Part shown: piece by piece, positions 3,328 through 30,380 of the stretch
Layout: the number at the start of each line of letters is the position of its first letter
How positions within the stretch are numbered: the first letter of the stretch is position 1
Source of the DNA: a virus
Reading direction: 5' to 3' (one strand)
IMG/VR virus record: IMGVR_UViG_3300027693_000002
Length of the DNA: 38,082 nt
Notes under the pieces: generated by a model
What the model was told of the DNA's origin: nothing
What the model saw: only the letters and a program-made list of their open reading frames with translations
The model's database searches: none
Made by a program: the position numbers and the translations under genes

Positions 3328-3420
3328 GGTGCAAAACCAGTACCACCCAAACCCCTTCGAGGCTTCTCCACCTGGGGTTGAAACGGCCCCAAACCCAAAA
3401 ACTAATACTCAGGTTGCACT
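3328..3420 (+). repeat. conserved ~95-nt 3'-UTR/intergenic element, copy 1
   Basis: It shares GCAAAACCAGTACCA, a stem AACCCC/GGGGTT, TTGAA, a CA-rich tract and ATACT...TTGCA with 30286-30380. The stem shows a compensatory change (CCCC/GGGG here, CCCCC/GGGGG in copy 2). Confidence 0.6.
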
Positions 3421-3442
3421 GGCAATACCACTTTTTTGTTGT

Positions 3443-3475
3443 TGAGTTCTCACCCCATCGTGCGTAGTACTTAGC
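3443..3475 (+). promoter_or_regulatory. consensus leaderless promoter (TTGAGT-N14-GCGTAGTA-N6-ATG)
   Basis: TTGAGT at 3443-3448 and GCGTAGTA at 3462-3469, with the ATG at 3476. Confidence 0.6.
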
Positions 3476-3835
3476 ATGTACGACCCAGCAGAGAAGATTG
3501 ACGAAGCTGTTCGAACCACATTGGCCGAGGCATTTCGTTGCGTAGGTTTGGAGCCCTACGCCGTGGTTGCCAGCGAATTCGTTGGGTCTGCATGTACCCT
3601 CCCCAACCACTACAGGACGGTGCCCGAGTTCGTGAATTGGCTTACCATCGGAGCAATCCGGAAGCTTGGGAGGGGGTTGGATCTCCCATGCGAGATGTTG
3701 CGCGAGATAGCACTCAGAATCGAGCACGCTTGCTTCGCTGCGAGTGAGCATGACGTCGATTCGGAGAGTGACGTGGAAACCGAACTCAACGTCGCCAAGC
3801 AAGCCCTCGAAGCCCTTCGGAAGAAGGCTCGCTAA
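3476..3835 (+). CDS. hypothetical protein (119 aa)
   Basis: ORF at the canonical distance from the promoter motif. Confidence 0.6.
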   Translation: MYDPAEKIDEAVRTTLAEAFRCVGLEPYAVVASEFVGSACTLPNHYRTVPEFVNWLTIGAIRKLGRGLDLPCEMLREIALRIEHACFAASEHDVDSESDVETELNVAKQALEALRKKAR

Positions 3836-3840
3836 CCGAT

Positions 3841-3870
3841 AAGAACGGGTCAAGTGGTTGACCCGTTCTT
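3841..3870. terminator. bidirectional hairpin terminator candidate between convergent genes
   Basis: A perfect 13-bp stem, AAGAACGGGTCAA / TTGACCCGTTCTT, with a GTGG loop. It sits between the stop of 3476..3835 (+) and the end of 3882..4172 (-). Confidence 0.5.
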
Positions 3871-3881
3871 CATCTCGTGAC

Positions 3882-4172
3882 TCATGGTTTCCTCAATCGT
3901 CCTACTACGCCGTTGCCACTGACCGTCTTATGCATCACCGTGTGGTCACGTGGCATCTCCGGTAGCCTAGGCTCTTCGTCAAACGGCGAGGTCGCGAACG
4001 GGTACTCCTCATCGAAGGTCAAAGCATTAACCTCGACCGGCTTCCCTTGTTCGTTCTCGGTGATGGTCTTCATCATGTCATCTTGGTTCTCGAACGTGGA
4101 CGTGGGCATTGGAGTGGACTTTAGACCTGGGGGTGGGTTAGGGTCGTAGCAGTTGACTCCAAACCTGATCAA
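3882..4172 (-). CDS. hypothetical acidic protein (96 aa; TTG or an internal ATG start)
   Basis: The minus-strand ORF has a more protein-like composition than the overlapping plus-strand ORF. The start codon is uncertain. Confidence 0.3.
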   Translation of the reverse strand: MIRFGVNCYDPNPPPGLKSTPMPTSTFENQDDMMKTITENEQGKPVEVNALTFDEEYPFATSPFDEEPRLPEMPRDHTVMHKTVSGNGVVGRLRKP

Positions 4173-4526
4173 AGTTACCCGATCATTTTCAACTTGACAA
4201 GAATTCCAATCGGATTTAGCATACCGGCCTCAGGTCATAATTCCGTAAAGTGGTAGATCTGATGGGTCCTTGAAAAGCAAGTCTATCGGGTTCACGGCAC
4301 GAAACAGCGCGTTCCGCGCACTTCCTTGCTGTGGTAAAAGACTTGAGGAAAATCAAGTTGACCAAACACCAAGAGGACTTGATCCTTTCGGGGAAAGTAG
4401 TTCCTAGATCACCTGGACGTTCCAGGACAAAATGGTCGAGGAATGTCGATATTCCTCGAAATTGGTGAATCGATGGATCGAAGGCTATGCCTAAGTTTAC
4501 TTAGGAAGTGTCCCGATCGTCGAATG

Positions 4527-4552
4527 ATGCAGTGCCCGAAGGGGCACTGCAT
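4527..4552 (+). other. GC-rich hairpin (11-bp stem) in the 4150-4650 non-coding region
   Basis: ATGCAGTGCCC-gaag-GGGCACTGCAT. Confidence 0.4.
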
Positions 4553-4651
4553 TCGCGCTATTACCGTACTAGCCGGAGGCTTACTGTGAAGGTAAGATCA
4601 CAAAATCTGGTTCGCATAGCTTCAAACTGAGAGTTCTACTCTAACGTAAGT

Positions 4652-4930
4652 TTGAACACGTTCTCAGATACGGTACTGAGCATGCCAGGACCAATATCCG
4701 ATGTGTATGATCCAGAGTTCTCGACGGTGGCGAATGCTGACCTAGTCCGTTCCGCCATAGAGATCCAACGGGACAAGGTAACCGCCCTACTTGGACCTCA
4801 GTTGCCCAACATCCTTGACGTTGTTGTTAACATGGATAGCAACGAGGGAAAAGAATTCACCATGAAGCTAACGGAGCGAGATCTACGAGTGATTCGCTTT
4901 GCGCTCAATCGAGCACTTGAGACGATCTAG
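4652..4930 (+). CDS. hypothetical protein (92 aa)
   Basis: ORF that follows the structured non-coding region. Confidence 0.45.
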   Translation: MNTFSDTVLSMPGPISDVYDPEFSTVANADLVRSAIEIQRDKVTALLGPQLPNILDVVVNMDSNEGKEFTMKLTERDLRVIRFALNRALETI

Positions 4931-5202
4931 ATCACTGGCACCCGGTGATACCTTGATGGGTACATCGTCTTTGTTGTTTTTGGTACGGGTGGTTCAGTGA
5001 AGAACGGGAGGAGTTGTTCCAACTCTTGTTCGCTTATGTGCAGGGTCACTAAGGCTCCATTAGGAGCCTTGAAGTCTACCGTTGTTATTGTACTGTGGAT
5101 GCTAGGTTCAAATCTTTGAGGACTCTCGTCTCCTACGTTGCGAAGTACTGGGACGAGGGTTCTTGTTTGGCTGAAAGAGCGTTCTAGCTGAAATCCAACT
5201 GT

Positions 5203-5949
5203 TCATAACCCACCTACCCGTAGCACGAGGTTAACGTACTCCAAACCCCGTGGTAGATCCCGGTTCACCAAAACCTTCCGACGAGTGCACGTCGTGGGTG
5301 CCTTGGTCTTGGGGTTGAACCCAGTCCTCTCGAAGTCCTCCCAATAGAGACCGACACCATGCTTTTGCCAGGTAGCGAGCTTGTTGAAATTGATCCCATG
5401 CTGAAAGAGTAGTTCGTTCTTGGCCGAGAAACTCCGACCTTCAAGGACCTCCGTCGCCTGCTTGGCGTTCTTCCCAGCCTTTCTCAACGTCCAGTAACAC
5501 CAGGAGTTCAGACAACAGCGAAAGGCATCCGACTGCCTCCATCGGAAGTAATCGACCACGTCGTTCTCCAAGATCCCCACCCAGACCCGACCGTCAAAGT
5601 GACCAGGCTTGCCCAGCTCCAACGAAAAGGTCGACGACGCTATCCCCGCAGAGACCGACACAAGCTTCTCCACTTCGCGACCGAATAGATCCGTATCACG
5701 AGGCAGTAGAACCGAAATTTCGTCACTCTCCGTGAATGCATAGAGTCCACCTAACTCAATCAACAAAGCCTTCGCCGTCGCCACCATGCACTCGTGAAAC
5801 TTCACATCGAATGGATGCTCCATTCCTCGGGTCAGCTTCGTGAAGCTCCGCCCATCAACACGAACAATGGGATAGGCACCAGGTAAGACTTCCAGCGCAT
5901 GATAGCACTCAAGCCGTCGCATCCGAACATCAAGGTTGTCACTTTTCAT
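5203..5949 (-). CDS. Thg1-like protein (tRNA-His guanylyltransferase / 3'-5' nucleotide polymerase family)
   Basis: 248 aa. The motifs IVRVDGRSF, TESDEISVLL, FDGRVWV, RWRQSDAFRCCLNSWCYWTL and SAKNELLFQHGINFNK align, from memory, with conserved Thg1 blocks ([55 protein letters not shown]). Confidence 0.8.
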   Translation of the reverse strand: MKSDNLDVRMRRLECYHALEVLPGAYPIVRVDGRSFTKLTRGMEHPFDVKFHECMVATAKALLIELGGLYAFTESDEISVLLPRDTDLFGREVEKLVSVSAGIASSTFSLELGKPGHFDGRVWVGILENDVVDYFRWRQSDAFRCCLNSWCYWTLRKAGKNAKQATEVLEGRSFSAKNELLFQHGINFNKLATWQKHGVGLYWEDFERTGFNPKTKAPTTCTRRKVLVNRDLPRGLEYVNLVLRVGGL

Positions 5950-12968: not shown

Positions 12969-13065
12969 CACACAGTTTCCCTGCAGAACTGTGTGTTTTA
13001 CACAACCCCCAGTTGTGTTGTGAGGTTTCCTACACACATCCGACGATGCGCCTTCGGCGCATCGT
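12969..13065. other. cluster of inverted repeats and GC hairpins
   Basis: CACACAGTT...AACTGTGTG at 12969-12995 and ACACAAC...GTTGTGT at 13000-13018. A 10-bp stem hairpin with a tight loop at 13043-13065 has the core TGCGCCTTCGGCGCA. The same 15-mer recurs near 31366. Confidence 0.6.
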
Positions 13066-13224
13066 GATTTACTGTGAAAGTAGTAGGTGTCGGATAACCA
13101 CACCAGAACAGGCGCTTCGCGCAAGTGTAGGTAGGGTAGTCCTATAAGATATGAGGTAGTGTTTGTCATACGTCTATACCTATGTAGGCGAGGGTATGAT
13201 TAGCTATGGTAGGTACGAAAGATA

Positions 13225-13300
13225 AGGTAGCCTACACGTAAGTGACGAGCGCGCTCGAATCAATAGTAACGAGCGTGGTTCTTGCCTACGTGTAGTTGTA
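13225..13300. repeat. R1 inverted-repeat element, copy 1 (GCCTACACGTAAGT ... CGAATCAATAGTAACGA ... CTACGTGTAGT)
   Basis: 10-bp terminal inverted repeats, CTACACGTAG / CTACGTGTAG. Homologous copies lie at 18103-18178 and 27825-27900. Confidence 0.65.
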
Positions 13301-13365: not shown

Positions 13366-13399
13366 TTGAGAGTTCGGGTGCTCGTGCGTAATAGAGGGC
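13366..13399 (+). promoter_or_regulatory. consensus leaderless promoter
   Basis: TTGAGA, a 14-nt spacer, GCGTAATA (13386-13393), gagggc, then ATG at 13400. Confidence 0.65.
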
Positions 13400-19864: not shown

Positions 19865-20563
19865 ATGATACAGTATGTACGTCCAGGGAAGAAACTAACA
19901 CTATACTGCCAGTGTTACAGTTACTTTGGGTCGGGGATTGGGATCGTCCGGTTGACGTTGACCGGCGGGGCCACACGGGGGCCTTCTGTGGAGTCCGGAG
20001 ACAACGGGTTCTGCCGCTGGAAGTCCTGCGAGGTGACCCTGCAGGCAGGGTCTACTGCGCGCGCGGAAGAGTCGTACTATCCCGGTGGGGACAGCGACAT
20101 CACTTACGTCGCGGACCTGGAGAAGTGGCGGGAGAAGAGGCGGGCCCATTTGGCTCGACTGTTTCAAGATCGGAAGATCGAGAGGGCGTACGCCGAGCTT
20201 CATTCGGCTCGTAAGCTGGAGATTGAGACTCGCTTACGAGCTGCGATCCAGGCTGCCATCGAGCTGGAGGGGCAGGCCCGGGCGCGAGCTTCAGGGCGTA
20301 GTGGCGGTCGAGCCCGAAGGGGAGCCGTGGTTCTTCGAGCCCAAGCGGCAGACCAACGTCGACTTGCGGCGGCCCTAGCATCAACCTACTACGTGGAAGT
20401 GCTCGAGTGCTGTAACCGAGCGTGGTCGGTCGACCAAGGGCTAGCGTCCCGAGAGGTTCGATGGGAAGCTCGGAACAGTTTCCGACAAAGCCGAGGCGGG
20501 CTAGCATCCGCCAAAATGCCAGCGGGTTGTGAAGTGGCACTCAAGTGGGCGTTAGCTGAGTAA
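19865..20563 (+). CDS. hypothetical Arg/Ala-rich protein (232 aa)
   Basis: ORF with an SD. Confidence 0.5.
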   Translation: MIQYVRPGKKLTLYCQCYSYFGSGIGIVRLTLTGGATRGPSVESGDNGFCRWKSCEVTLQAGSTARAEESYYPGGDSDITYVADLEKWREKRRAHLARLFQDRKIERAYAELHSARKLEIETRLRAAIQAAIELEGQARARASGRSGGRARRGAVVLRAQAADQRRLAAALASTYYVEVLECCNRAWSVDQGLASREVRWEARNSFRQSRGGLASAKMPAGCEVALKWALAE

Positions 20564-20851
20564 GCCACACACTTTCGAGTTCAAAATTTGGACATTGACT
20601 TAGAACTGGGCTATTCGGGGTGGGTATGGACGAATTCAGTCACAGAATCCGGCAAATAGCCCATCTCGTGCTTCACAAGCAGGACACATCATCTTTTGAC
20701 CCGCTCGAGGTAGAGGCGGCCAAGATCTACCTCAAAGACCAGGGGCCCGAGGAACCCGAGACTGAACGGCCACCAAGCTCTCCAAGTTCTCCAAAGCGCT
20801 CTTAGAGGAACTTGGTCTCGAAGGGGGGGTGGGATTTCCTCGAAAGAGAGG

Positions 20852-20885
20852 TTGAGCCCGGGCTCCCTCGCGCGTAATAGAGAGC
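20852..20885 (+). promoter_or_regulatory. consensus leaderless promoter
   Basis: TTGAGC, 14-nt spacer, GCGTAATA (20872-20879), then ATG at 20886. Confidence 0.6.
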
Positions 20886-21062
20886 ATGTCTACCGAAACC
20901 CGCCTAGAAGTTATGGCTCATGCTGCCCGTTGGGCAAACAACATGCTCAATGAGGTTCAGGCGAATCATGGGGTCCTGTTAGGACCCCATGCGAGACAAG
21001 CTCTGAAAACGGCAGTCCTGGCCCTAGGGGACTTTCTACTACACGTGAGCGTCAACGAATGA
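20886..21062 (+). CDS. hypothetical 58-aa protein (below the 60-aa cutoff of the ORF track)
   Basis: An ATG at the canonical distance from the promoter; translates to MSTETRLEVMAHAARW...VNE. Confidence 0.5.
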   Translation: MSTETRLEVMAHAARWANNMLNEVQANHGVLLGPHARQALKTAVLALGDFLLHVSVNE

Positions 21063-21205
21063 AGCTCAGCGAGAAACAACAAGATCTGTTCGACGAGATC
21101 AAGGATTTGACCTCCAATGGGGGTCGATTATCGATCGACCCCCATGAGGTTCCAACGGCGAAGGTCCTCGTGCTCTCCTTCAAAGAACCGCCCAGCAAAG
21201 GTTGA
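21059..21205 (+). CDS. hypothetical 48-aa protein, coupled by an ATGA overlap
   Basis: Its start overlaps the upstream stop (gaATGAag). Its stop lies within the next -35 box (GGTTGATC). Confidence 0.4.
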   Translation: MKLSEKQQDLFDEIKDLTSNGGRLSIDPHEVPTAKVLVLSFKEPPSKG

Positions 21206-21235
21206 TCTCTTTAGAGCCCAGGCGTAATAGAGTGC
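21202..21235 (+). promoter_or_regulatory. consensus leaderless promoter (TTGATC-N14-GCGTAATA)
   Basis: GCGTAATA at 21222-21229, then ATG at 21236. Confidence 0.6.
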
Positions 21236-21475
21236 ATGAGCAAGAAGCTATCCCCAGCCCAAGCCCGGGTCCTTCAGGAAGTCATCAAGGTTACTGACGA
21301 TGGATATCGAGCTTGGAGTTGTTTCCCGGAATACAAGCCTGCTCTCAAGCTCCTCGAGCTTGAGTATGTGTCCAAAAGTGAGACCTTGGGTAGCTACCGA
21401 ATCACTTTGGTCCCAACCGAGCTAGGTAGATCAGTGGCTTCTAAGTTAGCCACATCTAAATCCTTGACCACTTGA
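21236..21475 (+). CDS. family D small protein (79 aa)
   Basis: Paralogue of 18701. Its last codons run into the 380-nt repeat. Confidence 0.7.
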   Translation: MSKKLSPAQARVLQEVIKVTDDGYRAWSCFPEYKPALKLLELEYVSKSETLGSYRITLVPTELGRSVASKLATSKSLTT

Positions 21476-21897
21476 CCGTCCTGGGGTATCCTCCGGGGGT
21501 CGTAAGTTCTTCTTGCCCAGCGCCCGAATAGGCTTAGCGCCTTCCTTCTGGGGTCAGCCAGGTAAGAAACCTGAGGCCGCCTACTTCGGTGGGTCGTAAC
21601 AGGTGAACCGATAGACACCAGATGTAGATCCTATAGATGTAGATTCTATCCGATGTAGATACCATGCCTCAGCTAGGCCGAACCGGCCCTGCTAGGTCAA
21701 AGTAAGCTGACGATCTCTGTTCCCTGGAATGAGCCAATCCTTCCTCTTAGTAGGTAAACACAGGCTACGAGGGACGCCCGAGTCCGAAGCTAAACCGGCC
21801 CGCAGGAACGAAGTAGGACAAATAGCTCTCATTCTCAGCCTGAATCCCTTTGCTTTAGAGCAATTGTCTGGAAACGGGCTAAAGGTGTATTTGGGGG
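21461..21897. repeat. R2 large intergenic repeat, copy A (~437 nt)
   Basis: It aligns with 27946-28325. The blocks are near-identical (about 130 nt identical: GATACCATGCCTCAGCTAGGCCGAACCGGCCC...GAGTCCGA). Copy A carries an extra insert with 3 tandem copies of a GATGTAGAT-containing ~15-mer (21620-21665). No ORF is conserved between the two copies. Confidence 0.75.
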
Positions 21898-21898
21898 G

Positions 21899-21933
21899 TT
21901 GAGTTCGGGGAAAGCTCGTGCGTAGTAGAGATC
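21899..21933 (+). promoter_or_regulatory. consensus leaderless promoter (GCGTAGTA variant)
   Basis: TTGAGT (21899-21904), 15-nt spacer, GCGTAGTA (21920-21927), then ATG at 21934. It is preceded by GGAAACGGGCTAAAGGTGTATTTGGGGGG. Confidence 0.6.
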
Positions 21934-22569
21934 ATGGCATTGACAATCGGTTACGAGGTTCATTGGGCGGGGGCTAACAGGGCGGATGAGTTGTCGGCGC
22001 TCCGCCATGGTGCAAAGAGGCATGCTACCTATGAAGCCGCTCTGGTAGAGTCCAGAGAGATCACCCCTCCTGAGCCCGATCTGGTGACCATAGTGGTGGA
22101 AGTTCGAACTAAGGTTCAAACCAACTGCTCACAACCCCTACGTGGAGACCCCATGCCGAAGCTCGAAGAACGAATCGAGAAGAAACGAATTCACCTCCGT
22201 ACGCTGGACGAACAGATCGGGGCCCTAATGGCCCTGCGTGCTGATGTAGGAGAGGAGCTTGCGGACCTCTTACTCGAGTCGCGGGTTGGCATTCCGGAGG
22301 TGGTCGAGGGCGGGCAGCCCTTCAGGAGCGACCAGAAGGTGATCTTGGAGAAGCGGGCCCCCGACGGCAAAGCTCGACTTCACCCAAACCAGCCTCCGGT
22401 GGGTGCCATGACCTTTGACGCCCTCTACGCTCTCTACTTCTGGGAGTCGACTCACGACAAGCTCGATGCACTCTTCTTTCGGGAGGGGGCGATCGAAGAG
22501 GAAACTTGGAAGGACCTCCGTGAGTGGCTCGACTCAAAAGGTTGGGTCGTACGGGTTGAGACCTGGTGA
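21934..22569 (+). CDS. hypothetical protein (211 aa)
   Basis: ORF at the promoter. Confidence 0.6.
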   Translation: MALTIGYEVHWAGANRADELSALRHGAKRHATYEAALVESREITPPEPDLVTIVVEVRTKVQTNCSQPLRGDPMPKLEERIEKKRIHLRTLDEQIGALMALRADVGEELADLLLESRVGIPEVVEGGQPFRSDQKVILEKRAPDGKARLHPNQPPVGAMTFDALYALYFWESTHDKLDALFFREGAIEEETWKDLREWLDSKGWVVRVETW

Positions 22570-22575
22570 ATCTGG

Positions 22576-22610
22576 TTGAGTTCGGGGTAGGCTCATGCGT
22601 AATAGGGAGC
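22576..22610 (+). promoter_or_regulatory. consensus leaderless promoter
   Basis: TTGAGT (22576-22581), GCGTAATA (22597-22604), gggagc, then ATG at 22611. Confidence 0.6.
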
Positions 22611-22817
22611 ATGGGCGACTTGACCACAATCTGGATGGTTCGAACGATGGGTTTCGACTTCATTGGGCTGGCTCCAAAGACGGATGAACATCCGGCAATG
22701 CAGTGCCGATTCGTCGAACAGACGAACCAGATCATCTTTGAGGAGTTTCAGGATGGCAACTGGAGTGTGATCCCCCCATGTCTTCGTGGGGATTGGCAGC
22801 TCTTCAAGGTCCGGTAG
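22611..22817 (+). CDS. hypothetical 68-aa protein. The start is reassigned to the promoter-defined ATG.
   Basis: The track ORF 22566..22817 starts inside the promoter, but the canonical geometry points to 22611. Confidence 0.5.
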   Translation: MGDLTTIWMVRTMGFDFIGLAPKTDEHPAMQCRFVEQTNQIIFEEFQDGNWSVIPPCLRGDWQLFKVR

Positions 22818-22831
22818 AACGCGAATGTTAT

Positions 22832-22859
22832 GGGGCGGGCTTAAGGCGTCAGGAGGGAT
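22832..22859 (+). promoter_or_regulatory. family G leader module, copy 1 (GGGGCGGGCTTAAGGCGTCAGGAGGGAT-ATG; SD-containing)
   Basis: A 28-nt block repeated 3 times (also at 23195-23222 and 23540-23567), each ending 0-1 nt before an ATG. It contains AGGAGGG. Confidence 0.6.
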
Positions 22860-23135
22860 ATGGCAAGACTACAATACACGTACAAGTACCCACGGACTTC
22901 CTGGACGGACGTGCGCGAGACCCTCAGCGCTCGAAAGCGACGGTACTGGTACTCGCTCGAGGCCGCGGTTCGAGACATCGAGCGCATGATGCGCCCGGGC
23001 TGCACGAAAGAACCGTTCGTGCAGTTGATCGAGGTTCCTCCAGACGGTCCTATGCGCGTCCTAGCCGAGCGTACCCAAGACGAGTGGCTAGGTACTCTTG
23101 AAGCGGCTGGGTTCATCGCTCGCAGAGTCTCATAA
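22860..23135 (+). CDS. family G small protein (91 aa)
   Basis: MARLQYTYKY...; it shares its leader and its first residues with 23223. Confidence 0.5.
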   Translation: MARLQYTYKYPRTSWTDVRETLSARKRRYWYSLEAAVRDIERMMRPGCTKEPFVQLIEVPPDGPMRVLAERTQDEWLGTLEAAGFIARRVS

Positions 23136-23194
23136 GGTGAACCAACCTACATCGTTCCGCCTCGCTAGATAGTTCCGCCCGAACCCATTCAGTT

Positions 23195-23222
23195 GGGGCG
23201 GGCTTGAGGCGTCAGGAGGGAT
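23195..23222 (+). promoter_or_regulatory. family G leader module, copy 2
   Basis: GGGGCGGGCTTGAGGCGTCAGGAGGGAT, preceded by the hairpin CCGCCC...GGGCGG. Confidence 0.55.
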
Positions 23223-23480
23223 ATGACAAGACTACAATACACGAAGTTATGCGCATGGTTTGCGTTTTGGTATGTCGCATTGACAGCGTTACGGGCACTG
23301 CGCAACAGTGACACACTGATGTGTAAGTGGGCCTCGGTTGCGGCCAGGTGGCATCCGTGCGCCAAATCCGAGCCGGAGCTGCCAGATTATCCAGGTCGAG
23401 GGCCAGGAGGAGAGTCGCTGGTACGAGCGATCCATCTCGACGTTTTGCACGGCACGGACCGTGCATTTTCAAGTATGTGA
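23223..23480 (+). CDS. family G small protein (85 aa); diverged after the N-terminus
   Basis: MTRLQYT... Confidence 0.4.
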   Translation: MTRLQYTKLCAWFAFWYVALTALRALRNSDTLMCKWASVAARWHPCAKSEPELPDYPGRGPGGESLVRAIHLDVLHGTDRAFSSM

Positions 23481-23514
23481 GGAGGAAGTGATGAATATCA
23501 CATGCATACTATAC

Positions 23515-23567
23515 GCCTTAAGCCCGAACCCATTCAGTTGGGGCGGGCTTAAGGCATCAGGAGGGAT
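23515..23567 (+). promoter_or_regulatory. family G leader module, copy 3, with a 12-bp stem hairpin (GCCTTAAGCCCG / CGGGCTTAAGGC)
   Basis: The 3' arm of the hairpin is part of the conserved leader block just upstream of the SD. Confidence 0.55.
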
Positions 23568-23951
23568 ATGCCTACATTCAATTTAGAGGCACTGGAAAGT
23601 CTACCAGCTGGTACTATCCCAGATGGCTGGTACCCTATTAGGCGGGTTGATCTCGACGGCGTGCAACTGGTCGAGACCGATACAGGAGCTTACCGGCTTA
23701 CGGCCGGGGAACACGGGAAGAACCCCCATTTTGGGCGTGTGCAGAATATCCCCGGGCGTGGGCCCGCGTGGATGCGTTTGATTTTCCGCGAATGTGCCTA
23801 TGGCGCGGAGTCGGATTCTGCCCAGCAAGCGATTGCTGAGGCCATAGAGGCCGAGAACGCTGAGAGTCAAGTCCGACCCCCTTCTTCGATTGAGCGCGCA
23901 AACGAACTTCAGGGGGTAAGCGCCAAAGCGGGCCCCTCCAAAACCGGTTGA
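23568..23951 (+). CDS. hypothetical protein (127 aa)
   Basis: ORF that follows a module-type leader. It ends ...AAAACCGGTTGA, inside the next -35 box. Confidence 0.5.
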   Translation: MPTFNLEALESLPAGTIPDGWYPIRRVDLDGVQLVETDTGAYRLTAGEHGKNPHFGRVQNIPGRGPAWMRLIFRECAYGAESDSAQQAIAEAIEAENAESQVRPPSSIERANELQGVSAKAGPSKTG

Positions 23952-23981
23952 GCTTCGTGTTGCCCGCGCGTAATACTGGGC
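23948..23981 (+). promoter_or_regulatory. consensus leaderless promoter
   Basis: TTGAGC (23948-23953), 14-nt spacer, GCGTAATA (23968-23975), then ATG at 23982. Confidence 0.6.
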
Positions 23982-24245
23982 ATGGCACATAGAACTCACC
24001 GCAAGTTGGCAAAGCGACTGATCAGCCCTTGTTGGATGATCCGGACCGGGATTGCTTGCGAGCAGATCTCCCCCGTGTATCCGACCCTTGAGAAGGGATT
24101 CGAGGAGGTGGTCTCCGCCGTTTGCGGGTTTGACCCACTGTCAAGTCCGGACACCATCGAGCTCGTCCGCCACAGTCGGCGGAATCCAAAGCTTCTCGTC
24201 CGGTACTACTGTACGGATGAGGGGAAGATCGTCCAGGTTCAGTAG
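23982..24245 (+). CDS. hypothetical protein (87 aa)
   Basis: ORF at the promoter. Confidence 0.55.
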   Translation: MAHRTHRKLAKRLISPCWMIRTGIACEQISPVYPTLEKGFEEVVSAVCGFDPLSSPDTIELVRHSRRNPKLLVRYYCTDEGKIVQVQ

Positions 24246-24258
24246 GCGCGCTTTCTGG

Positions 24259-24293
24259 TTAATTTCGTCACGGGTTTCCGCGTAATAATGGGC
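24259..24293 (+). promoter_or_regulatory. consensus leaderless promoter (TTAATT -35)
   Basis: GCGTAATA at 24280-24287. The canonical ATG is at 24294; an extra ATG at 24288 directly abuts the box. Confidence 0.55.
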
Positions 24294-24677
24294 ATGTCGA
24301 ACAACGTTCATCTCCTGGATTTTATTCACACTGGGACTCAACAGCAGTTGGTTGCATTCGCCTGCAAGGTAGCTAAGCGAGCCAGCCCCGGGCCTGCTGG
24401 ACTTCATGCGATCGAGATTGCGGAGCGATGGCTCCGGGGTGAAGCTATTTCGAAGGAAGAACTCATCGTCGCGGGAGATGCGGCCTCTGATGCAGACGAT
24501 GACCTGGCAGGCTACGCTACCATCGCGGCGGCCTTTCCAGGAGATGCCGTCGAAGCGGCTTACATAACGGCGATCCACGCTTTGGATGATCTTGACGACC
24601 ACGCTCAGGAGGCTGAGGTGGCTCAACAAGTCCAGGACTTTCTTGATATCTTGGGTGGAAACCCAGCAAAGGAGTGA
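24288..24677 (+). CDS. hypothetical acidic protein (129 aa from 24288, or 127 aa from 24294)
   Basis: First gene of an operon whose downstream genes are SD-led. Confidence 0.6.
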   Translation: MGMSNNVHLLDFIHTGTQQQLVAFACKVAKRASPGPAGLHAIEIAERWLRGEAISKEELIVAGDAASDADDDLAGYATIAAAFPGDAVEAAYITAIHALDDLDDHAQEAEVAQQVQDFLDILGGNPAKE

Positions 24678-25177
24678 ATATGGGAGAGTTTTCGGAACAA
24701 TTGATGTCTGGGGGGCCGGAGCTCTTAGCGCTACCCGCAGATCCGGTTATAGGCGAGGCGTTGACCTCGATGCAGGCCTACCCGGAGGAATGGTGGTGTG
24801 AGCTTCAAGAGCTTCAACCAAAGCTTCGTATGGCGATTCTGGAGACGGCAGTGGCTGGAGATCGGGCTGCCCAGGATGCTGATTGGCTCCTGAGTGATTA
24901 TGATACCTTCAACTATGCGTTGAATACCCGAACGTTTGACGAGGGCTTCTTGCGGTTTGTCATGGGATTGCTCGAGTGTGGGCCGGGTTTACACTTCAGT
25001 GGACCACGGTTCCGGTTAGCTTTCCGACTTGGAGTACTGAACGCGGCTTCCTTCCAGGATAAGCATCGGAAGGACATGGTTATTTGCCGCTCACAGGATG
25101 CTGCCCCTTGGGAAGCTCGACCAATGCAGCTCTTACGGAGGCTGGCCGCCGTAAAGGTAAAGCCCGAACCCAAGTAG
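24674..25177 (+). CDS. hypothetical protein (167 aa), SD-led, with a 4-nt overlap
   Basis: AAGGAG lies 9 nt upstream of the start. Confidence 0.55.
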   Translation: MNMGEFSEQLMSGGPELLALPADPVIGEALTSMQAYPEEWWCELQELQPKLRMAILETAVAGDRAAQDADWLLSDYDTFNYALNTRTFDEGFLRFVMGLLECGPGLHFSGPRFRLAFRLGVLNAASFQDKHRKDMVICRSQDAAPWEARPMQLLRRLAAVKVKPEPK

Positions 25178-25198
25178 AACAGTGGGTGAGGGCGGCCC

Positions 25199-25606
25199 AT
25201 GAAACTCGAGGAAGTGACCGCTGGAAGGCGATTGAAACTGAGCAATCTCGCTCAGTTAGAAGGGGTATACCAAATGCTAGGTAGAAGGGGCATTCCATCT
25301 ATTTCGTTGAAACAATTGGTAGATGATGCGGTTTTTGCACTCTCACGGTTCCAACACGAGAAAGGGACTGTCAGCGAGCTACGTTCCCTGGCAAGTCCGA
25401 ATCACATCATGGACTTGATCTTCTTTGCCAACGCGAAGTCGGTCACTTTTCGTGATCGTGGCGTGGAGTGCGCGGTCGAAGCGGACAAGCGAGACTGTCA
25501 GCTCGCTGCTCTCGCGTTGGTCAAGATAGCCCAGCGAGCTGAACACATTGTGGAGGTCCTTCGAGGAAGGAGAATACCAGATGTGGTACGACATTGTGAA
25601 CGGTAA
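25199..25606 (+). CDS. hypothetical protein (135 aa)
   Basis: ORF in the operon. Confidence 0.5.
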   Translation: MKLEEVTAGRRLKLSNLAQLEGVYQMLGRRGIPSISLKQLVDDAVFALSRFQHEKGTVSELRSLASPNHIMDLIFFANAKSVTFRDRGVECAVEADKRDCQLAALALVKIAQRAEHIVEVLRGRRIPDVVRHCER

Positions 25607-25946
25607 CGGGGACTTTCTCGGACGTGCTAATGGGGATACGCCGGAGGGGGCCGTCGAAGGAGTCCAAAAGTACTGGCCATGTCCCGAAGACCGTTGGCTT
25701 CGAGACCCAAGTAACAAGGAGTCCCAGGACCTTCTCATTCCTGGGGCCAAGAAGGAACAGGAACTGGTCCGAAAGGATGTTTGGGCCTTCTGCAAACCCC
25801 ACATTAAGGGAATGCTGGGTGTGCAGACCAAACCGTTGAATAAGCCCCCGCAATTCTTAGATGGGGAGTACTACTACGAGGTTCTTGGTAAGACCTACTG
25901 CGTCAAGATCGTGCTTGATGCAGTCTTCATCACCCGCATCAAATAG
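25548..25946 (+). CDS. family F protein (132 aa), with its C-terminal 57 aa shared with 25999..26541
   Basis: AAGGAG SD. The C-terminal block KDVWAFC.PHIKGM....KPLNKPPQFLDGEY.YEVLGKTYCVKIVLDAVFITR.K is duplicated. Confidence 0.6.
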   Translation: MWRSFEEGEYQMWYDIVNGNGDFLGRANGDTPEGAVEGVQKYWPCPEDRWLRDPSNKESQDLLIPGAKKEQELVRKDVWAFCKPHIKGMLGVQTKPLNKPPQFLDGEYYYEVLGKTYCVKIVLDAVFITRIK

Positions 25947-25963
25947 AACTGACTCAAAGAGAG

Positions 25964-25998
25964 TTGAGTTCTTGGACCCTCGCGCGTAATAGAGGGGT
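25964..25998 (+). promoter_or_regulatory. consensus leaderless promoter
   Basis: TTGAGT (25964-25969), 14-nt spacer, GCGTAATA (25984-25991), then ATG at 25999. Confidence 0.65.
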
Positions 25999-26541
25999 AT
26001 GCAAGACCAAGACGATATCAAGGAAGAGCTCAAGCACATTGTCTGGGGTCTCGCCATCGAAGGGGCCACGGCTCATCTCCACGAGACCAGCGTTACCTTC
26101 AAGGCCGAGGGGGTGGATTGCTCCATCTATACGGAGGTGCTTGCGATCCCGAACCAAGTGACCAAGGACGCCGAGGGGAATGAATACGTTCCCTTGGAGG
26201 TCAGAGTCACCCTAGTTGAGCCAATTTTTGCTTTAGACACGCCCAAGGAAATCATCGCCCGACTCCAATTCGGGCTCAAGGTTGCCCAGCTCGCGCAGAG
26301 CATTGTTGATCACTTCGCAGGCCGAGACCTTCGGTGCCTCCTCTGTAGCGCAGGTGAGAGGGCCGAGAAGGATGTTTGGGCCTTCTGCACACCCCACATT
26401 AAGGGAATGCGGGTAGACAAGACCAAGCCGTTGAATAAGCCCCCGCAATTCTTAGATGGGGAGTACCACTACGAGGTTCTTGGTAAGACCTACTGCGTCA
26501 AGATCGTGCTTGATGCAGTCTTCATCACGCGCACCAAATAG
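25999..26541 (+). CDS. family F protein (180 aa)
   Basis: Its C-terminal domain is duplicated from the previous gene, and the promoter is duplicated with it (a 40-nt identical upstream block). Confidence 0.65.
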   Translation: MQDQDDIKEELKHIVWGLAIEGATAHLHETSVTFKAEGVDCSIYTEVLAIPNQVTKDAEGNEYVPLEVRVTLVEPIFALDTPKEIIARLQFGLKVAQLAQSIVDHFAGRDLRCLLCSAGERAEKDVWAFCTPHIKGMRVDKTKPLNKPPQFLDGEYHYEVLGKTYCVKIVLDAVFITRTK

Positions 26542-26557
26542 AACGGACCCAAAAAAG

Positions 26558-26591
26558 TTGAGTTCTTGGACCCTCGCGCGTAATAGAGGGC
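26558..26591 (+). promoter_or_regulatory. consensus leaderless promoter
   Basis: Identical to the 25964 promoter over about 35 nt (TTGAGTTCTTGGACCCTCGCGCGTAATAGAGGGC). Confidence 0.65.
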
Positions 26592-26795
26592 ATGAAGACG
26601 GAACTCATGGTTGGCTCAGAACTCGTAAAACGCCGCCGTAGCCTCTCGTACCCTTCTGGAACTGTCAAGGTTCCTGGAACCTTGGTCACGATTGTCGGAT
26701 CGACTCCCAAGTTTTGGGAGTTGAGCGATGACACTCTCGTGTCAAAAACCACTCTCGAAGCAAAAGGTTCGCTATTCACTTACAGTGTGAGCTGA
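26592..26795 (+). CDS. hypothetical protein (67 aa)
   Basis: ORF at the promoter. Confidence 0.5.
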   Translation: MKTELMVGSELVKRRRSLSYPSGTVKVPGTLVTIVGSTPKFWELSDDTLVSKTTLEAKGSLFTYSVS

Positions 26796-26800
26796 TAGCC

Positions 26801-27106
26801 ATGAACCAACGAGATATGCCACCAGGGACCAAGGTGGCTTACACAGGTAAGTTCCTACGTTCGGCGGGCCTCTACACGGGTTCAGCGGGCCTTGACCAGT
26901 TCGTAGTCCAAGAGTGCCACTGCCCTCACTGCAAGGGCAAGACTCGGGTAGCCGTCAACCGGCTCGCTTCTTGGACCGATCCCCATGAGCCTGGGTACGA
27001 CCCCGAGTACGCTCGTGATCTCAAGGCTGAGGTGGGGAACACCTGGCTGCACATAAGTCCGACGGCCCTCTACGTGGTAGGGGAGTTGGACCCAAGGAAC
27101 GTCTGA
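26801..27106 (+). CDS. hypothetical protein with a CHCPHC motif (101 aa)
   Basis: ORF. Confidence 0.45.
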   Translation: MNQRDMPPGTKVAYTGKFLRSAGLYTGSAGLDQFVVQECHCPHCKGKTRVAVNRLASWTDPHEPGYDPEYARDLKAEVGNTWLHISPTALYVVGELDPRNV

Positions 27107-27149
27107 CTTCGTTGGACTGTCTCGCCCCGAGACGGGGTATTAGGTCCCC

Positions 27150-27422
27150 ATGGACCTAAAAAGGTACGAGAGCAAGGTGACGGCCCTTCTAAACCTACTT
27201 AGGGAGCACGAAGTCCTGTCCTCTCAGCTACCAATTGGGTTCTCAGAAGCTTGCTTCGTTGCTGAGGAGTTCGGCCTGGCCTACGCCAGAAAAGACCTCA
27301 CCTTAACGTCAAGGGACAAGGCTATCTGGGTATGGAGGATCACCGACGCTGGTCGCCGTTGGCTCAAAGAGCGAGAGCATCCTGAAGTCCCTCCGACAGA
27401 AGTTCTCCCCACGAAGGATTGA
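27150..27422 (+). CDS. family E small protein (90 aa)
   Basis: Paralogue of 28412..28666 (MDL.KYESK..ALL..LR.H..LS..LP.G..EAC..AEE.GLAYARKD..L.S..KAIW.WRIT..G..WLK.RE.PEVPPT). A GTATTAGG box precedes the ATG. Confidence 0.6.
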   Translation: MDLKRYESKVTALLNLLREHEVLSSQLPIGFSEACFVAEEFGLAYARKDLTLTSRDKAIWVWRITDAGRRWLKEREHPEVPPTEVLPTKD

Positions 27423-27452
27423 GTTTCTGAGCCCTTATGCGTAATACTGGGC
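27419..27452 (+). promoter_or_regulatory. consensus leaderless promoter
   Basis: TTGAGT (27419-27424) overlaps the stop of the previous gene; GCGTAATA (27439-27446); then ATG at 27453. Confidence 0.6.
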
Positions 27453-27671
27453 ATGCCGAATGAAGACCATCAGGTGGTGCTTGGAATCCAAGTAAAGAAG
27501 AACGCAAAGGGGATGCGAGTGGGAGCCTCGAAAGAGGTTTTCCACATGACGATTGGGCTGAGCCAGAAGGCCATGATCCTTCCGGGTCGTCACTTGGTGG
27601 TGCTCGGGACCCGACGTTACCGGGTAGAGGTCGACCAGAACAAGAACCTCAAGATTACTCGTACGGTTTGA
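27453..27671 (+). CDS. hypothetical basic protein (72 aa)
   Basis: A frameshifted remnant of its 5' end, with its own promoter, recurs at 31651. Confidence 0.6.
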   Translation: MPNEDHQVVLGIQVKKNAKGMRVGASKEVFHMTIGLSQKAMILPGRHLVVLGTRRYRVEVDQNKNLKITRTV

Positions 27672-27724
27672 CCTAAGTTCAAGAGATAGGGGGAGTGATC
27701 CACAGACTTGGGTCACTCCCTCGT

Positions 27725-27900
27725 TATCCATGTAAGCAAATACGTGGTTCGTTACTATTGATACGAACAGTGCACTCGCTTACATGTAGTTTTTGCTCAC
27801 GTTCGTTACTATTGATACGAAAGCTAAGGTTGCCTACACGTAAGTATCAAGCACGTTCGAATCTATAGTAATGAACACGATTTTGGTCTACGTGTAGTAT
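27725..27900. repeat. R1 inverted-repeat element, copy 3, plus two extra direct copies of the 19-21-mer GTTCGTTACTATTGATACGAA
   Basis: 19-21-mers at 27748-27768 and 27802-27822 in one orientation, and CGAATCTATAGTAATGAAC at 27858-27875 inverted. Termini are GCCTACACGTAAGT / CTACGTGTAGT. CATGTAAGC...GCTTACATG flanks the first 19-21-mer. Confidence 0.65.
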
Positions 27901-27945
27901 GAGGAGACCACTTGACCGCCCTGAAGGTCAGCCAACAAGTATCTC

Positions 27946-28325
27946 CTCTTGACCACTTGACCGCCCTGAGGTATCCTCCGGGGGTCGTAAGTTCATCTTG
28001 CCCAGCACCCGAACAGGCCCAGAGCCTTCCTTCTGGGGTTAGCGAGGCAGAGTGAACCTCCTACGACACTCATCCTAGATGAAGATACCATGCCTCAGCT
28101 AGGCCGAACCGGCCCTGCTAGGTCAAAGTAAGCTGACGATCTCTGTTCCCTGGAATGAGCCAATCCTTCCTCTTAGTAGGTAAACACAGGCTACGAGGGA
28201 CGCCCGAGTCCGAGTGCTGAAACGACCTAAACGGAACCGAAGTAGGACAAGTAGCTCAAATCTCAGCCTGAATCCCTTTGCTTTCGGAGCAATTGATTGG
28301 AAACGGGCTAAAAGTGCATTTACTT
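27946..28325. repeat. R2 large intergenic repeat, copy B (~380 nt)
   Basis: See copy A. It is preceded by two tandem copies of ACCACTTGACCGCCCTGA(A)GG (27905-27965). Confidence 0.75.
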
Positions 28326-28411
28326 GATTAACTACATCTCCTAGGACTAGCTGGACACCCTCACCCACCCCAGTTAGAATACATCCCAGAACGGGGTGAG
28401 CCGTATTCACG

Positions 28412-28666
28412 ATGGACCTAACCAAGTACGAAAGTAAGATAGCGGCCCTCCTAATCGTACTCAGAGGTCACGACATCCTGTCCCCCAACCTACCTAGCGG
28501 GTCCGCAGAGGCTTGTTCCATCGCCGAAGAGCTCGGCCTGGCCTACGCCAGAAAAGACGTCCACCTGTCATCCAGCATGAAAGCTATCTGGATTTGGAGG
28601 ATCACCGCCTCCGGTTGCCAATGGCTCAAAGATCGGGAGCGTCCTGAAGTACCCCCGACAGATTGA
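28412..28666 (+). CDS. family E small protein (84 aa)
   Basis: Paralogue of 27150. Confidence 0.6.
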   Translation: MDLTKYESKIAALLIVLRGHDILSPNLPSGSAEACSIAEELGLAYARKDVHLSSSMKAIWIWRITASGCQWLKDRERPEVPPTD

Positions 28667-28702
28667 GTTTGGAAACGGGCTAAAGGTGTATTTGGGGGTA
28701 CG

Positions 28703-28900
28703 ATGTCACCGATATCTCGTCAGGAGAAGAGCCTATTGGAGAGGGAGAGTCCTGGGGATCCTGCTGGGGATCTTCGGGAGAGGGACCGGCTCAGGAAGCA
28801 GCATGAGCGGGCACAGGATCCGGACAACATGAGGCTAATCCAAGCGTTACGTGAGTTTCTAGGGCTACAACCGCTACCTGGGATCCCAGAAAGAAAGTGA
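28703..28900 (+). CDS. hypothetical charged protein (65 aa)
   Basis: It is preceded by TTGAGT plus the GGAAACGGGCTAAAGGTGTATTTGGGGG element, but has no GCGTAATA box. Confidence 0.4.
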   Translation: MSPISRQEKSLLERESPGDPAGDLRERDRLRKQHERAQDPDNMRLIQALREFLGLQPLPGIPERK

Positions 28901-28909
28901 AGAACCTGG

Positions 28910-28943
28910 TTGAGGGTCCACCTCCTCGCGCGTAATAATAGGC
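28910..28943 (+). promoter_or_regulatory. consensus promoter with no ORF at the canonical position (ACG replaces ATG); it feeds a long hairpin
   Basis: TTGAGG (28910-28915), 14-nt spacer, GCGTAATA (28930-28937), ataggc, then ACG. Confidence 0.55.
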
Positions 28944-28944
28944 A

Positions 28945-29039
28945 CGAAGGTCAGAAGCTAAACCCCTCCTTGACTAGCTGTAGTGGGGTCCTTGACTAGC
29001 TGTAGTGGTTAGTGGGAGGGGTTTAGTTCCTGACCTTCG
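28945..29039 (+). ncRNA. 95-nt hairpin leader / ncRNA candidate. The ~25-bp stem has a 4-nt internal mismatch. The 45-nt loop holds two tandem copies of CCTTGACTAGCTGTAGTGG.
   Basis: The 5' arm CGAAGGTCAGAAGCTAAACCCCTCC (28945-28969) pairs with GGAGGGGTTTAGTTCCTGACCTTCG (29015-29039). The predicted transcription start of the upstream promoter is at about 28944. Confidence 0.45.
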
Positions 29040-29050
29040 TAGTCGGAACC

Positions 29051-29407
29051 GTGGGAGACATCGAAGTGAAGTTCATCGAGAAAACGACGTTACGGAATTG
29101 CGGCCCCGTTGATCAAGAGGAGGATTCGCCGGTGCACGGATCCCTTCTCGTGGGAGAAGAGTGTGTCGGAACCTACGAAGACCGACGGTCTTCGTGCGGG
29201 TATGACTTCGTTGAGGTTTTCCCCGCGTACCATCGTGGGGCGAAAGCGTGGCTGCTCACGGCTACGTGGTCCCCTGCTCGGGGGTACTCGGCAAGCGGGG
29301 TCCAGGATGCGGTGGTCCCCTTCGAGGAGGGGGTTCGAATTCTGCTCACTCATGGGGCATACGCGCATCTTTGGAAGTCAACTGGATTGGAGTACTTGGT
29401 GAAGTGA
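29051..29407 (+). CDS. hypothetical protein (118 aa), GTG start, 11 nt after the hairpin
   Basis: ORF. Its TGA stop overlaps the GTG start of the next gene (GTGA). Confidence 0.4.
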   Translation: MGDIEVKFIEKTTLRNCGPVDQEEDSPVHGSLLVGEECVGTYEDRRSSCGYDFVEVFPAYHRGAKAWLLTATWSPARGYSASGVQDAVVPFEEGVRILLTHGAYAHLWKSTGLEYLVK

Positions 29408-29802
29408 CCAAGCTCACCAACTCGCAAAAGTCCTTACTGAGATCTATCCAGGCTCTCTCATCTGAGGGTAACAGGTCAGTAGAGGTCTTACCTTCCGAGA
29501 TTACGACAGCCAAGGCCCTCGAGCGAAAGGGGCTCGTCACCCTTCACTCCACCCAGGTAGGGGGCAGGGAGTCCTACGAGGCCACCCTGGTAGTGATCGA
29601 CTCCCGGCGTGAGGTCATTGGGGTCATCGAGGAGTTCATGGTTCAGCTCCAATCCGCCTGCCGAGCCCTCGAAACGGAATCCGACTCAAGTACTCTCTTC
29701 GAGCACATGAGTACCGTTATGAGCCACGGGAGAATCGAATCGCTCCGCATAGCTCTTCGCAATCGGGCCCTCGAGCTCTACGAGGAAAAGAAGGGCTCGT
29801 AG
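29404..29802 (+). CDS. winged-helix-like small protein candidate (133 aa from a GTG start)
   Basis: The frame matches the track ORF 29248..29802, but its N-terminal 52 aa look non-coding (Gly-rich). A GTG at 29404 is coupled to the upstream stop. The stretch KSLLRSIQALSSEGNRSVEVLPSEITTAKALERKGLVTL resembles MarR/wHTH helices. Confidence 0.4.
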   Translation: MTKLTNSQKSLLRSIQALSSEGNRSVEVLPSEITTAKALERKGLVTLHSTQVGGRESYEATLVVIDSRREVIGVIEEFMVQLQSACRALETESDSSTLFEHMSTVMSHGRIESLRIALRNRALELYEEKKGS

Positions 29803-29814
29803 ACCGCTCCCCGG

Positions 29815-29849
29815 TTGAGTTTCACCCGCCCTCAGGCGTAATAAGGTTC
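29815..29849 (+). promoter_or_regulatory. consensus leaderless promoter
   Basis: TTGAGT (29815-29820), 15-nt spacer, GCGTAATA (29836-29843), then ATG at 29850. Confidence 0.6.
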
Positions 29850-30284
29850 ATGTCACTTCAACACTTGTTAGCCGAGGCCCTCTGCGCAACCTTCACCAGC
29901 ATGTGTGGGAAGTGGCAAGCCAAGAAGCCTTCCCCCAAGGCCTTCGTGGTGAGCTTCAAGACCTCCATTAACTCCGACAAGGAAGAGGGTCACCGTTACG
30001 TCGACCTAGCCCTCTACGCTTCCCACAACTACGTCAACGTCTACTCACGAGAGCGCTGGAATACAATCCCACTCGAGGATATGGAGTGGGACGAGGAAGC
30101 CCAAGAGATGATGCCCTCGAAGGGCAAGGGCTATACCAAGGGTGAGACCCCTTGGAAGCTCCTAGTCTCCCATGACACGGGCTGGTCGGAGGCGGTGGAG
30201 GACTTCCTCCAGGCGAACGCCTCCAAGGTGAACGCCTTCGAGGGCAACTTTTACAAGCTCGTGGACGCTACCGAGTTCGAGTGA
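29850..30284 (+). CDS. hypothetical protein (144 aa)
   Basis: ORF at the promoter. Confidence 0.6.
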   Translation: MSLQHLLAEALCATFTSMCGKWQAKKPSPKAFVVSFKTSINSDKEEGHRYVDLALYASHNYVNVYSRERWNTIPLEDMEWDEEAQEMMPSKGKGYTKGETPWKLLVSHDTGWSEAVEDFLQANASKVNAFEGNFYKLVDATEFE

Positions 30285-30285
30285 A

Positions 30286-30380
30286 GGTTGCAAAACCAGT
30301 ACCAGCCAACCCCCTCCGGAGCCACTCCACAGGGGGTTGAAGTGCCCTCCAACCTCCAACCCTGATACTTTGATTGCAGA
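30286..30380 (+). repeat. conserved ~95-nt 3'-UTR element, copy 2
   Basis: See 3328-3420. It starts 2 nt after the stop of 29850..30284, just as copy 1 starts after the stop of 2978..3310. Confidence 0.6.

Follow-up and report, generated by a model that had tools for sequence, protein, structure and literature searches.

A conserved intergenic element of a small clade of uncultivated phages, most likely concerned with transcription control at gene boundaries

Introduction

In the T4-type phages, terminator/promoter cassettes known as promoter-early stem-loops (PeSLs) have been described in ORFan regions (Arbiol et al. 2010, PMC2839356; Comeau et al. 2014, PMC4122927), and the order of the sites in the lambda terminator tR1 is RutA-BoxB-RutB (PMC4344519). 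The element described here, a repeat of approximately 95 nt that stands at two gene boundaries, was found in a 38-kb stretch of DNA (38,082 nt; IMG/VR virus record IMGVR_UViG_3300027693_000002) that is part of an uncultivated phage, and this whole stretch is referred to below as the window. Two further kinds of repeated intergenic site can be set beside it. The stoperators of the Cluster A mycobacteriophages are asymmetric repressor sites of 13-14 bp that lie in short intergenic gaps in 20-30 copies per genome, and the early region of T7 has RNase III processing sites between its genes in the form of paralogous conserved hairpins. We conclude that the repeat is a real, selected and clade-restricted intergenic element, which most likely serves transcription control at gene boundaries.

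Results

Two co-oriented copies of a composite element

Alignment with MAFFT defined two co-oriented copies of the repeat, at 3328-3421 (copy A) and 30287-30381 (copy B). The repeat finder recorded them (family D18) as 79% identical over 66 nt, whereas blastn aligned them over 95 nt with 75.8% identity (E = 6e-11). Both contain the 16-mer TGCAAAACCAGTACCA, which occurs in the window only at 3330 and 30289. When up to three mismatches were allowed, three matches to this 16-mer were obtained against 0.24 expected, and three were reached in none of 100 shuffles. These results establish the repeat as real, as a first, sequence-only reading of the window had held; that reading was also right that the core is identical in the two copies, but the core is 16 nt long rather than 15. 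The window has no copy besides these two. The parts of the two copies are listed below, with scores from a covariance model (R1) that was built from four versions of the element.

3328-3421, plus strand: copy A (R1, 96 bits, E = 1e-20)
30287-30381, plus strand: copy B (R1, 114 bits)
3330-3345, plus strand: 16-nt core TGCAAAACCAGTACCA of copy A
30289-30304, plus strand: 16-nt core of copy B
3350-3390, plus strand: C-run / G-run / C-run segment of copy A
30307-30339, plus strand: hairpin of copy B, CAACCCCCT..GGAG-CCA-CTCC..AGGGGGTTG (-22 kcal/mol, z = -2.65)
3380-3402, plus strand: C/A-rich, G-poor tail of copy A
30340-30362, plus strand: C/A-rich, G-poor tail of copy B, with CCAACC repeated
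3402-3417, plus strand: 3' module of copy A, CTAATACTCAGGTTGC, which contains the -10-like TAATACT
30362-30377, plus strand: 3' module of copy B, CTGATACTTTGATTGC

The strings AACCCC/GGGGTT (3350-3355 and 3374-3379) and AACCCCC/GGGGGTT (within 30307-30339), which had been picked out as the arms of a stem, are indeed present, and in both copies the C/A-rich, G-poor tail is followed by CTRATACYNNGRTTGC. The 3' module repeats the core in inverted orientation (TGCAA..AGTA / TACT..TTGCA).

Homologous versions in related phages are non-coding and conserved

Searching with the flanking proteins recovered three further versions of the element in related metagenomic phages, all of them intergenic and on the coding strand.

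L135, 9755-9849: orthologue of copy B, with both neighbouring genes conserved
L186, 6836-6931: version in which the gene on each side differs
L205, approximately 3995-4126: orthologue of copy A, with the downstream promoter and gene kept and an unrelated upstream gene

The 16-nt core is invariant in A, B, L135 and L186 and carries four changes in L205. When R1 was run over about 0.5 Mb of related loci, it returned the known versions and nothing further. Pattern scans of IMG/VR, the Joint Genome Institute (JGI) metagenomes and the GTDB genomes gave only chance matches, as checked by blastn and the covariance model, and the INPHARED phages included neither a relative of the window nor a match to the element. 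Rfam gave no hit in the whole window at gathering thresholds, and permissive E-value scans of both copies gave nothing that overlapped the element; a tRNA, a tmRNA and other known RNA families were looked for and not found. Because matches outside the related phages are only those expected by chance and no Rfam family matches, the element is restricted to a narrow clade.

Copy B and the L135 version are 84.2% identical over 95 nt without a gap, whereas the third codon positions of both flanking genes are 60-65% identical between the same two loci. Copy A and the L205 version agree in 77 of 88 aligned columns, and L205 carries 42-45 extra nt. A synonymous excess was seen in no frame of either strand, and stop codons interrupt five of the six. 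Since its identity exceeds that of the third codon positions and its substitutions lack a coding pattern, the element is non-coding and under purifying selection. Two coding explanations were considered and rejected. A small open reading frame (ORF) inside the element (QNQY...) fails because, by hand comparison, all of the differences between B and L135 would change the amino acid. An extension of the upstream gene by stop-codon read-through fails because the frame of the element in A and B differs from that in L135, L186 and L205.

The element keeps its downstream gene while the upstream genes differ

The boundaries occupied by the two copies have the following features.

3308-3310, plus strand: stop codon of a 110-aa gene (2978-3310), upstream of copy A
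2943-2972, plus strand: leaderless sigma70-like promoter of the 110-aa gene
3442-3478, plus strand: canonical leaderless promoter (TTGAG-N17-GCGTAGTA) and ATG of a 119-aa gene
30282-30284, plus strand: stop codon of a 144-aa gene (29850-30284; promoter 29815-29843), upstream of copy B
30378-30391, plus strand: short purine-containing leader GAGAACCTAC and ATG (30389) of a 94-aa gene, after copy B

The element had been placed 2-15 nt after the stop codons; the actual distances are 1-4 nt for copy B and 17-19 nt for copy A. The element begins 1-25 nt after stop codons, so that its RNA would be untranslated, as that of a Rho-dependent terminator has to be. The 119-aa gene (3476-3835, plus strand), which is backed by the homologues P0018 and P0019, has a promoter that begins 20 nt after copy A. 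No canonical promoter lies between copy B and the 94-aa gene. Protein comparison showed that the two upstream proteins (110 and 144 aa) are dissimilar and that the same is true of the two downstream proteins (119 and 94 aa), which supports the earlier statement that the genes flanking the copies are unrelated. Nor is the repeat a by-product of gene-block duplication, as had also been argued, since the five versions lie between different gene pairs. A 290-aa ORF on the minus strand across copy A (2981-3853) was rejected as a shadow ORF, because the plus-strand genes are backed by promoters and the 119-aa gene has homologues.

Copy A and L205 have the promoter and the 119-aa gene in common, and their upstream genes differ; copy B and L135 have both flanking genes in common. 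In L186 both flanks differ, although the start of the downstream gene (ATG-CC(N), encoding MPT) is kept and is fused to a truncated, unrelated gene. Breakpoints lie at the edges of the element in L186 and L205, and scars are found beside two of the versions. In L135, a duplicate of about 23 nt of the leader, ATG and first codons stands on the far side of the element, and in L205 an adjoining remnant with GTTGAAGTGCCCT has a 13-nt identity to the sequence after the hairpin of copy B. On this comparison the element remains with its downstream gene while the upstream genes are replaced. In other phages, the junction before the homologue of the 94-aa gene carries a canonical leaderless promoter (L183), or the homologue overlaps the gene that precedes it (L180, L184).

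The 94-aa gene itself stops at a TAG, and its homologues in L184, L185 and L186 run approximately 45 residues further; DNA homology continues to 30809 (window 30671-30809). The gene may be truncated or split, or its stop codon may be read through.

RNA structure

The sequence-only reading had inferred a compensatory base pair from the two stems, and here it did not hold. With A and B aligned in one register, the C-G pairs of copy B correspond to A.G and C.T mismatches in copy A, and the two stem changes lengthen and shift the stem, which is a register shift without covariation. None of 22 pairs was changed on both sides across four sequences. The minimum-energy fold of copy A pairs GGGGTTG (3374-3380) with CGGCCCC (3384-3390) rather than forming the AACCCC/GGGGTT stem. 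In B, L135 and L186 the C-run and G-run form a strong hairpin (-22, -15 and -27 kcal/mol, with z-scores of -1.8 to -3.1), whereas in A and L205 the same G-run pairs with the downstream C-run, with energies no better than those of shuffled sequences. Folding of the whole element gave z = -2.1 for copy B and z = +0.35 / -0.6 for copy A.

Pairing in the alternative hairpin reaches 94% over the five sequences, a figure without statistical weight by the shuffle control. Its changes are one-sided (G-C to G-U and U-G to U-A), and none of its seven pairs is changed on both sides in the five sequences. The shuffle controls for this covariation count and the preceding one were uninformative. The outer pairing, of TGCAA..AGTA with TACT..TTGCA, is weakened in L205 by uncompensated changes. 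An RNA structure in the element is possible, but the structural argument as a whole failed, given the lack of covariation, the uncompensated changes in L205 and a preferred hairpin that differs between copies. Two specific structures were rejected: a hammerhead or other self-cleaving ribozyme, for which inspection found no conserved cores and Rfam no hit, and a G-quadruplex of the template strand, the G-tracts being irregular and unconserved across the five versions.

Base composition, terminator and promoter signals, and spacing

The C-rich, G-poor character attributed to the element is real, in that both copies fall in the top 1% or so of 78-nt windows for C over G (32 C to 17 G in A, 34 C to 20 G in B). 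The G-run takes part in the mid-element hairpin, which leaves unpaired C-rich stretches of about 20-30 nt each, compared with the approximately 70-80 nt of a Rho utilisation (rut) site. The insertions in L205 are again C/A-rich, one of them being a self-contained hairpin, and the composition is thus retained even where the sequence is not.

A scan for intrinsic terminators flagged none inside either copy; the sequences after the hairpin are GAAACGG in A and GAAGTGC in B, without a U-tract. Over the window, U-tract terminators were no commoner than in shuffled sequence. A scan for sigma70-type promoters likewise flagged none inside either copy, and a canonical sigma70 or leaderless promoter within the element was rejected because the -35/-10 spacing is wrong. 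A sigma54 promoter was rejected as well: the spacing TGGCAC-N5-TTGCA can be found in the 3' module, but the defining GG is absent, and A and L205 lack the TG.

The downstream genes in three of the five contexts have no canonical (TTGAG-N17-GCGTAATA) promoter, and therefore transcription must traverse the element or restart within it. From the core to the 3' module the distance is 73, 74, 74 and 75 nt in four of the versions; in L205 it is 116 nt.

Promoters and other features of the window

By Pfam and PHROG searches, one of the window proteins is Thg1-like and one, of 654 aa, carries virion-protein domains; almost all of the others are ORFans. About 18 plus-strand genes are leaderless, each with the promoter TTGAG-N17-GCGTAATA-N5/6-ATG. 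These promoters are near-identical, with the ATG 5-6 nt after them, and lie within 13366-31644 (plus strand) and at 3442-3469. The relatives L135, L186, L205, L184 and L183 have the same leaderless promoter class, at about one per kb. The invariant GCG ahead of TAATA in these promoters is unusual for a sigma70 -10 element. A 215-aa ORF (37177-37824, minus strand) resembles sigma factors (phrog_351, E = 2e-8; FliA/WhiG-like in a PDB sequence search, E of about 3e-5) and could be a reader of the abundant GCGTAATA promoters. The -10 consensus of sigma28 is GCCGATAA.

Downstream of copy A, a hairpin AACGGGTCAA-GTGG-TTGACCCGTT (3844-3867) lies between the convergent genes 3476-3835 (plus) and 3882-4172 (minus); it has no clear U-tract and probably terminates transcription in both directions. 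A second repeat of about 90 nt, at 4267-4350 (minus) and 31320-31413 (plus), consists of a GCGC...GCGC hairpin followed by TGTTTCGTG and looks terminator-like, and related hairpins are present at 13043-13065 (plus) and 32142-32154 (minus). This repeat is found approximately 1 kb downstream of each copy of the element, in opposite orientations. A functional link between the two was rejected, since the second repeat is absent beside the L135 version. An 83-nt repeat family (D9) with long inverted arms, CCTACACGTA...TACGTGTAG, is also intergenic (13214-13296, 18090-18172 and 27816-27898).

ORFans and their promoters are duplicated many times, at 73-99% identity, as at 13431-13730 / 17199-17498, 27145-27400 / 28407-28662, 18476-18697 / 18975-19196, 25773-25958 / 26368-26553 and 21652-21787 / 28078-28213. 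These internal duplications (families D1, D3, D5, D6 and D8) indicate an actively shuffling region. A segment of 535 bp, mostly non-coding (4140-4674), is 98% identical to L184:2407-1874 and inverted relative to the neighbouring homologous segments. A gene for a TnpB / Cas12f-like protein (PF07282, 380 aa), seen on L208:84-1226, overlaps the start of the window (1-779, minus). The Thg1-like protein, a homologue of tRNA-His guanylyltransferase, is encoded at 5203-5949 (minus; Pfam Thg1 1.2e-26, Thg1C 4e-15), and no tRNA genes were found in the window.

Discussion

We observed directly that the element exists, that it is non-coding and under selection, that its versions are co-oriented and biased towards C over G, that it is linked to the downstream gene and that its flanks are swapped and scarred. 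It stands in two kinds of context, before a promoter and between promoter-less cistrons, and the simplest function that fits both is control of transcription arriving from upstream. Our preferred reading, a tentative one to which we would give a probability of about 0.3, is that one small clade of uncultivated phages carries the element as a portable control cassette for gene boundaries, in which a factor-dependent attenuator is combined with signals for the restart of expression. What we infer in this reading is the attenuation, any role of Rho and the promoter activity of the 3' module. Polymerase leaving the upstream gene would enter the untranslated 16-nt box, then the C-run/G-run hairpin and the C/A-rich, G-poor tract, and transcription would be attenuated within this untranslated stretch. 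Because no U-tract follows the hairpin, attenuation would require a factor, for which Rho is the obvious candidate, and for this reason we consider the Rho idea reasonable. In B, L135 and L186 the next gene would be driven by the 3' module (the -10-like TRATACT, a short leader and the ATG), whereas in A and L205 it would be driven by the canonical leaderless promoter that follows. The distal genes in B, L135 and L186 could be expressed by leakage, by antitermination or from the -10-like TRATACT. As about 90 nt is conserved, the cassette might double as a recombination joint for the exchange of ORFans.

Several observations weigh against an attenuator-and-restart cassette. Only B, L135 and L186 have a strong hairpin, and A and L205 favour another pairing. 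A rut site or a hairpin attenuator would leave both the invariant 16-nt box and the conserved 3' module unexplained. As for restart, the distance from the -35-like TTGAAG to the -10-like motif is 19-21 nt rather than 17, TTGAAG is lost in L205, and the invariant GCG of the canonical -10 element is absent from the 3' module. Only two copies occur in 38 kb, compared with about 18 canonical promoters. Finally, the spacings between core and 3' module approximate 7 and 11 helical turns and, taken with the inverted ends, fit a DNA-level site equally well or better.

One could envision such a site as a pair of inverted protein-binding sites (TGCAA-N4-AGTA), formed by the core and the 3' module, through which a phage regulator loops the DNA or blocks the path of polymerase in the manner of the stoperators; the imperfect palindrome between the ends is possibly another site, and the regulator would sit on one face of the helix. 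Such a regulator would act on the promoter-like 3' module or on the canonical promoter after the element. We think that this is possible, though on the whole doubtful. The sequence is conserved without covariation, the ends are inverted repeats, the predicted RNA fold differs among the copies, and the changes in the L205 core are uncompensated on the other arm, all of which a DNA site would accommodate; the L205 insertions, of 10 and 32 nt, are also near whole helical turns. However, this helical phasing depends on a single divergent sequence, and the strand-specific C/A-rich composition, which is kept in the insertions, is left unexplained, as is the co-orientation of all five copies with transcription. 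Nor is there a candidate for the DNA-binding protein, the neighbouring ORFs having no Pfam or PHROG hits apart from the sigma-like ORF, which is 7 kb away.

A clade-specific control point for elongation, at which either a nut/put-like RNA at a Rho entry site or inverted DNA operators 7 helical turns apart (acting as a roadblock or through a loop) would gate the promoter-less distal genes in transcription units that are otherwise leaderless and have a promoter for each gene, we consider unlikely. When the idea is narrowed to an RNA site for processive antitermination, like lambda nutR/tR1 or HK022 put, it becomes harder still to sustain. The box and the hairpin in the nascent RNA would in that case modify RNA polymerase, possibly together with a phage factor, and the C-rich tracts would be a Rho entry site that is overridden. 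The arrangement is suggestive: two copies per 38 kb in unrelated contexts, each soon after a stop codon and co-oriented, with a linear invariant box, then a hairpin, and C-rich, G-poor RNA around them. In B, L135 and L186, moreover, several genes form a unit in which the element comes after the first and the distal ones have no canonical promoter. The basic N-terminus of the 94-aa protein (MPTPRKKPTKK) would suit a phage factor, but this protein has no Pfam hit and only non-significant PDB matches (E of about 0.16), and homologues of its gene exist without the element. Similarity to boxA or boxB and an Rfam hit are both lacking, and A and L205 prefer a fold other than the hairpin. After copy A, antitermination would have no obvious purpose, as a single gene comes next and beyond it lie the hairpin at 3844-3867 and a gene in convergent orientation.

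If the element served RNA processing or stability, like the RNase III sites of T7, its long irregular hairpin would be cut, so that the upstream mRNA keeps a protective stem at its 3' end and a new 5' end arises near the next start codon. The position between cistrons, a consensus fold in which the outer pairing encloses the inner hairpin, and the z of -2.1 for the whole of copy B are all in keeping with it. We nevertheless regard it as very unlikely, because the outer helix is weakened in L205 without compensation, copy A folds no better than shuffled sequence, covariation is absent, and a one-sided loop of 26 nt does not resemble known RNase III substrates. The least probable explanation is that the element is selfish and mobile, like a miniature inverted-repeat transposable element (MITE), or a mere recombination scar with no regulatory role: its short inverted ends, its presence or absence at otherwise related junctions, the duplication flanking the L135 version and the TnpB-like gene at the window start would fit, but the copies number only two and are 79% alike, the inverted ends comprise only 5+4 nt, A, B, L186 and L205 have no consistent target-site duplication, conservation between orthologous loci exceeds that of third codon positions, the orientation is always that of the genes, and database scans gave no copies outside the clade.

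Should the element prove to attenuate transcription with the help of a factor, or to serve antitermination, PeSL- or nut-type control would extend to an uncultivated lineage unrelated to T4 or lambda. Phages of this clade express most of their early ORFans from individual promoters, as leaderless mRNAs, and another, rarer class of conserved boundary element would reveal how promoter-less genes and read-through from upstream are handled, and also how ORFan genes move between genomes. The reach of the finding is modest, that of a well-defined candidate cis-element in a few metagenomic phages.

How, then, does the element compare with the systems described at the outset? Like the RNase III sites of T7, its copies are paralogous conserved elements between cistrons, but they have no stable conserved double helix of about two turns, their structure differs and covariation is lacking. 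With the stoperators it shares an asymmetric, invariant short box that is intergenic, in one orientation and conserved as sequence rather than as structure; here, however, the box belongs to a composite element of about 95 nt that is present in two copies. The PeSLs are closer in several respects. Like them, the element is about 100 bp long and occupies the gap between the stop codon of one gene and the ATG of the next, in a highly mosaic region rich in ORFans, it has a stem-loop of C and G runs, and flanking genes have been swapped at it, leaving chimeric or partial copies. Unlike a PeSL, it lacks the defining sigma70-consensus promoter (-35, 17±1 bp, -10) and the AT-rich UP region, the abundant promoter of this phage (TTGAG-N17-GCGTAATA, leaderless) being a separate motif. 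PeSLs are also numerous, compared with two copies in 38 kb, flank ORFans with recombination breakpoints inside the motif, and do not have an invariant 16-nt box; there is no sequence similarity, and the phage lineages are unrelated. From lambda nut the element differs in having no boxA consensus and in a stem of 6-11 bp plus an inner stem where boxB has a 5-bp stem and a pentaloop, and from nutR/tR1 in being larger and in having a conserved 3' module. Yet its organization is that of lambda nutR/tR1 in other ways: two co-oriented copies per genome in unrelated contexts, each located just after a stop codon, with a linear box followed by a hairpin and C-rich, G-poor RNA around them.

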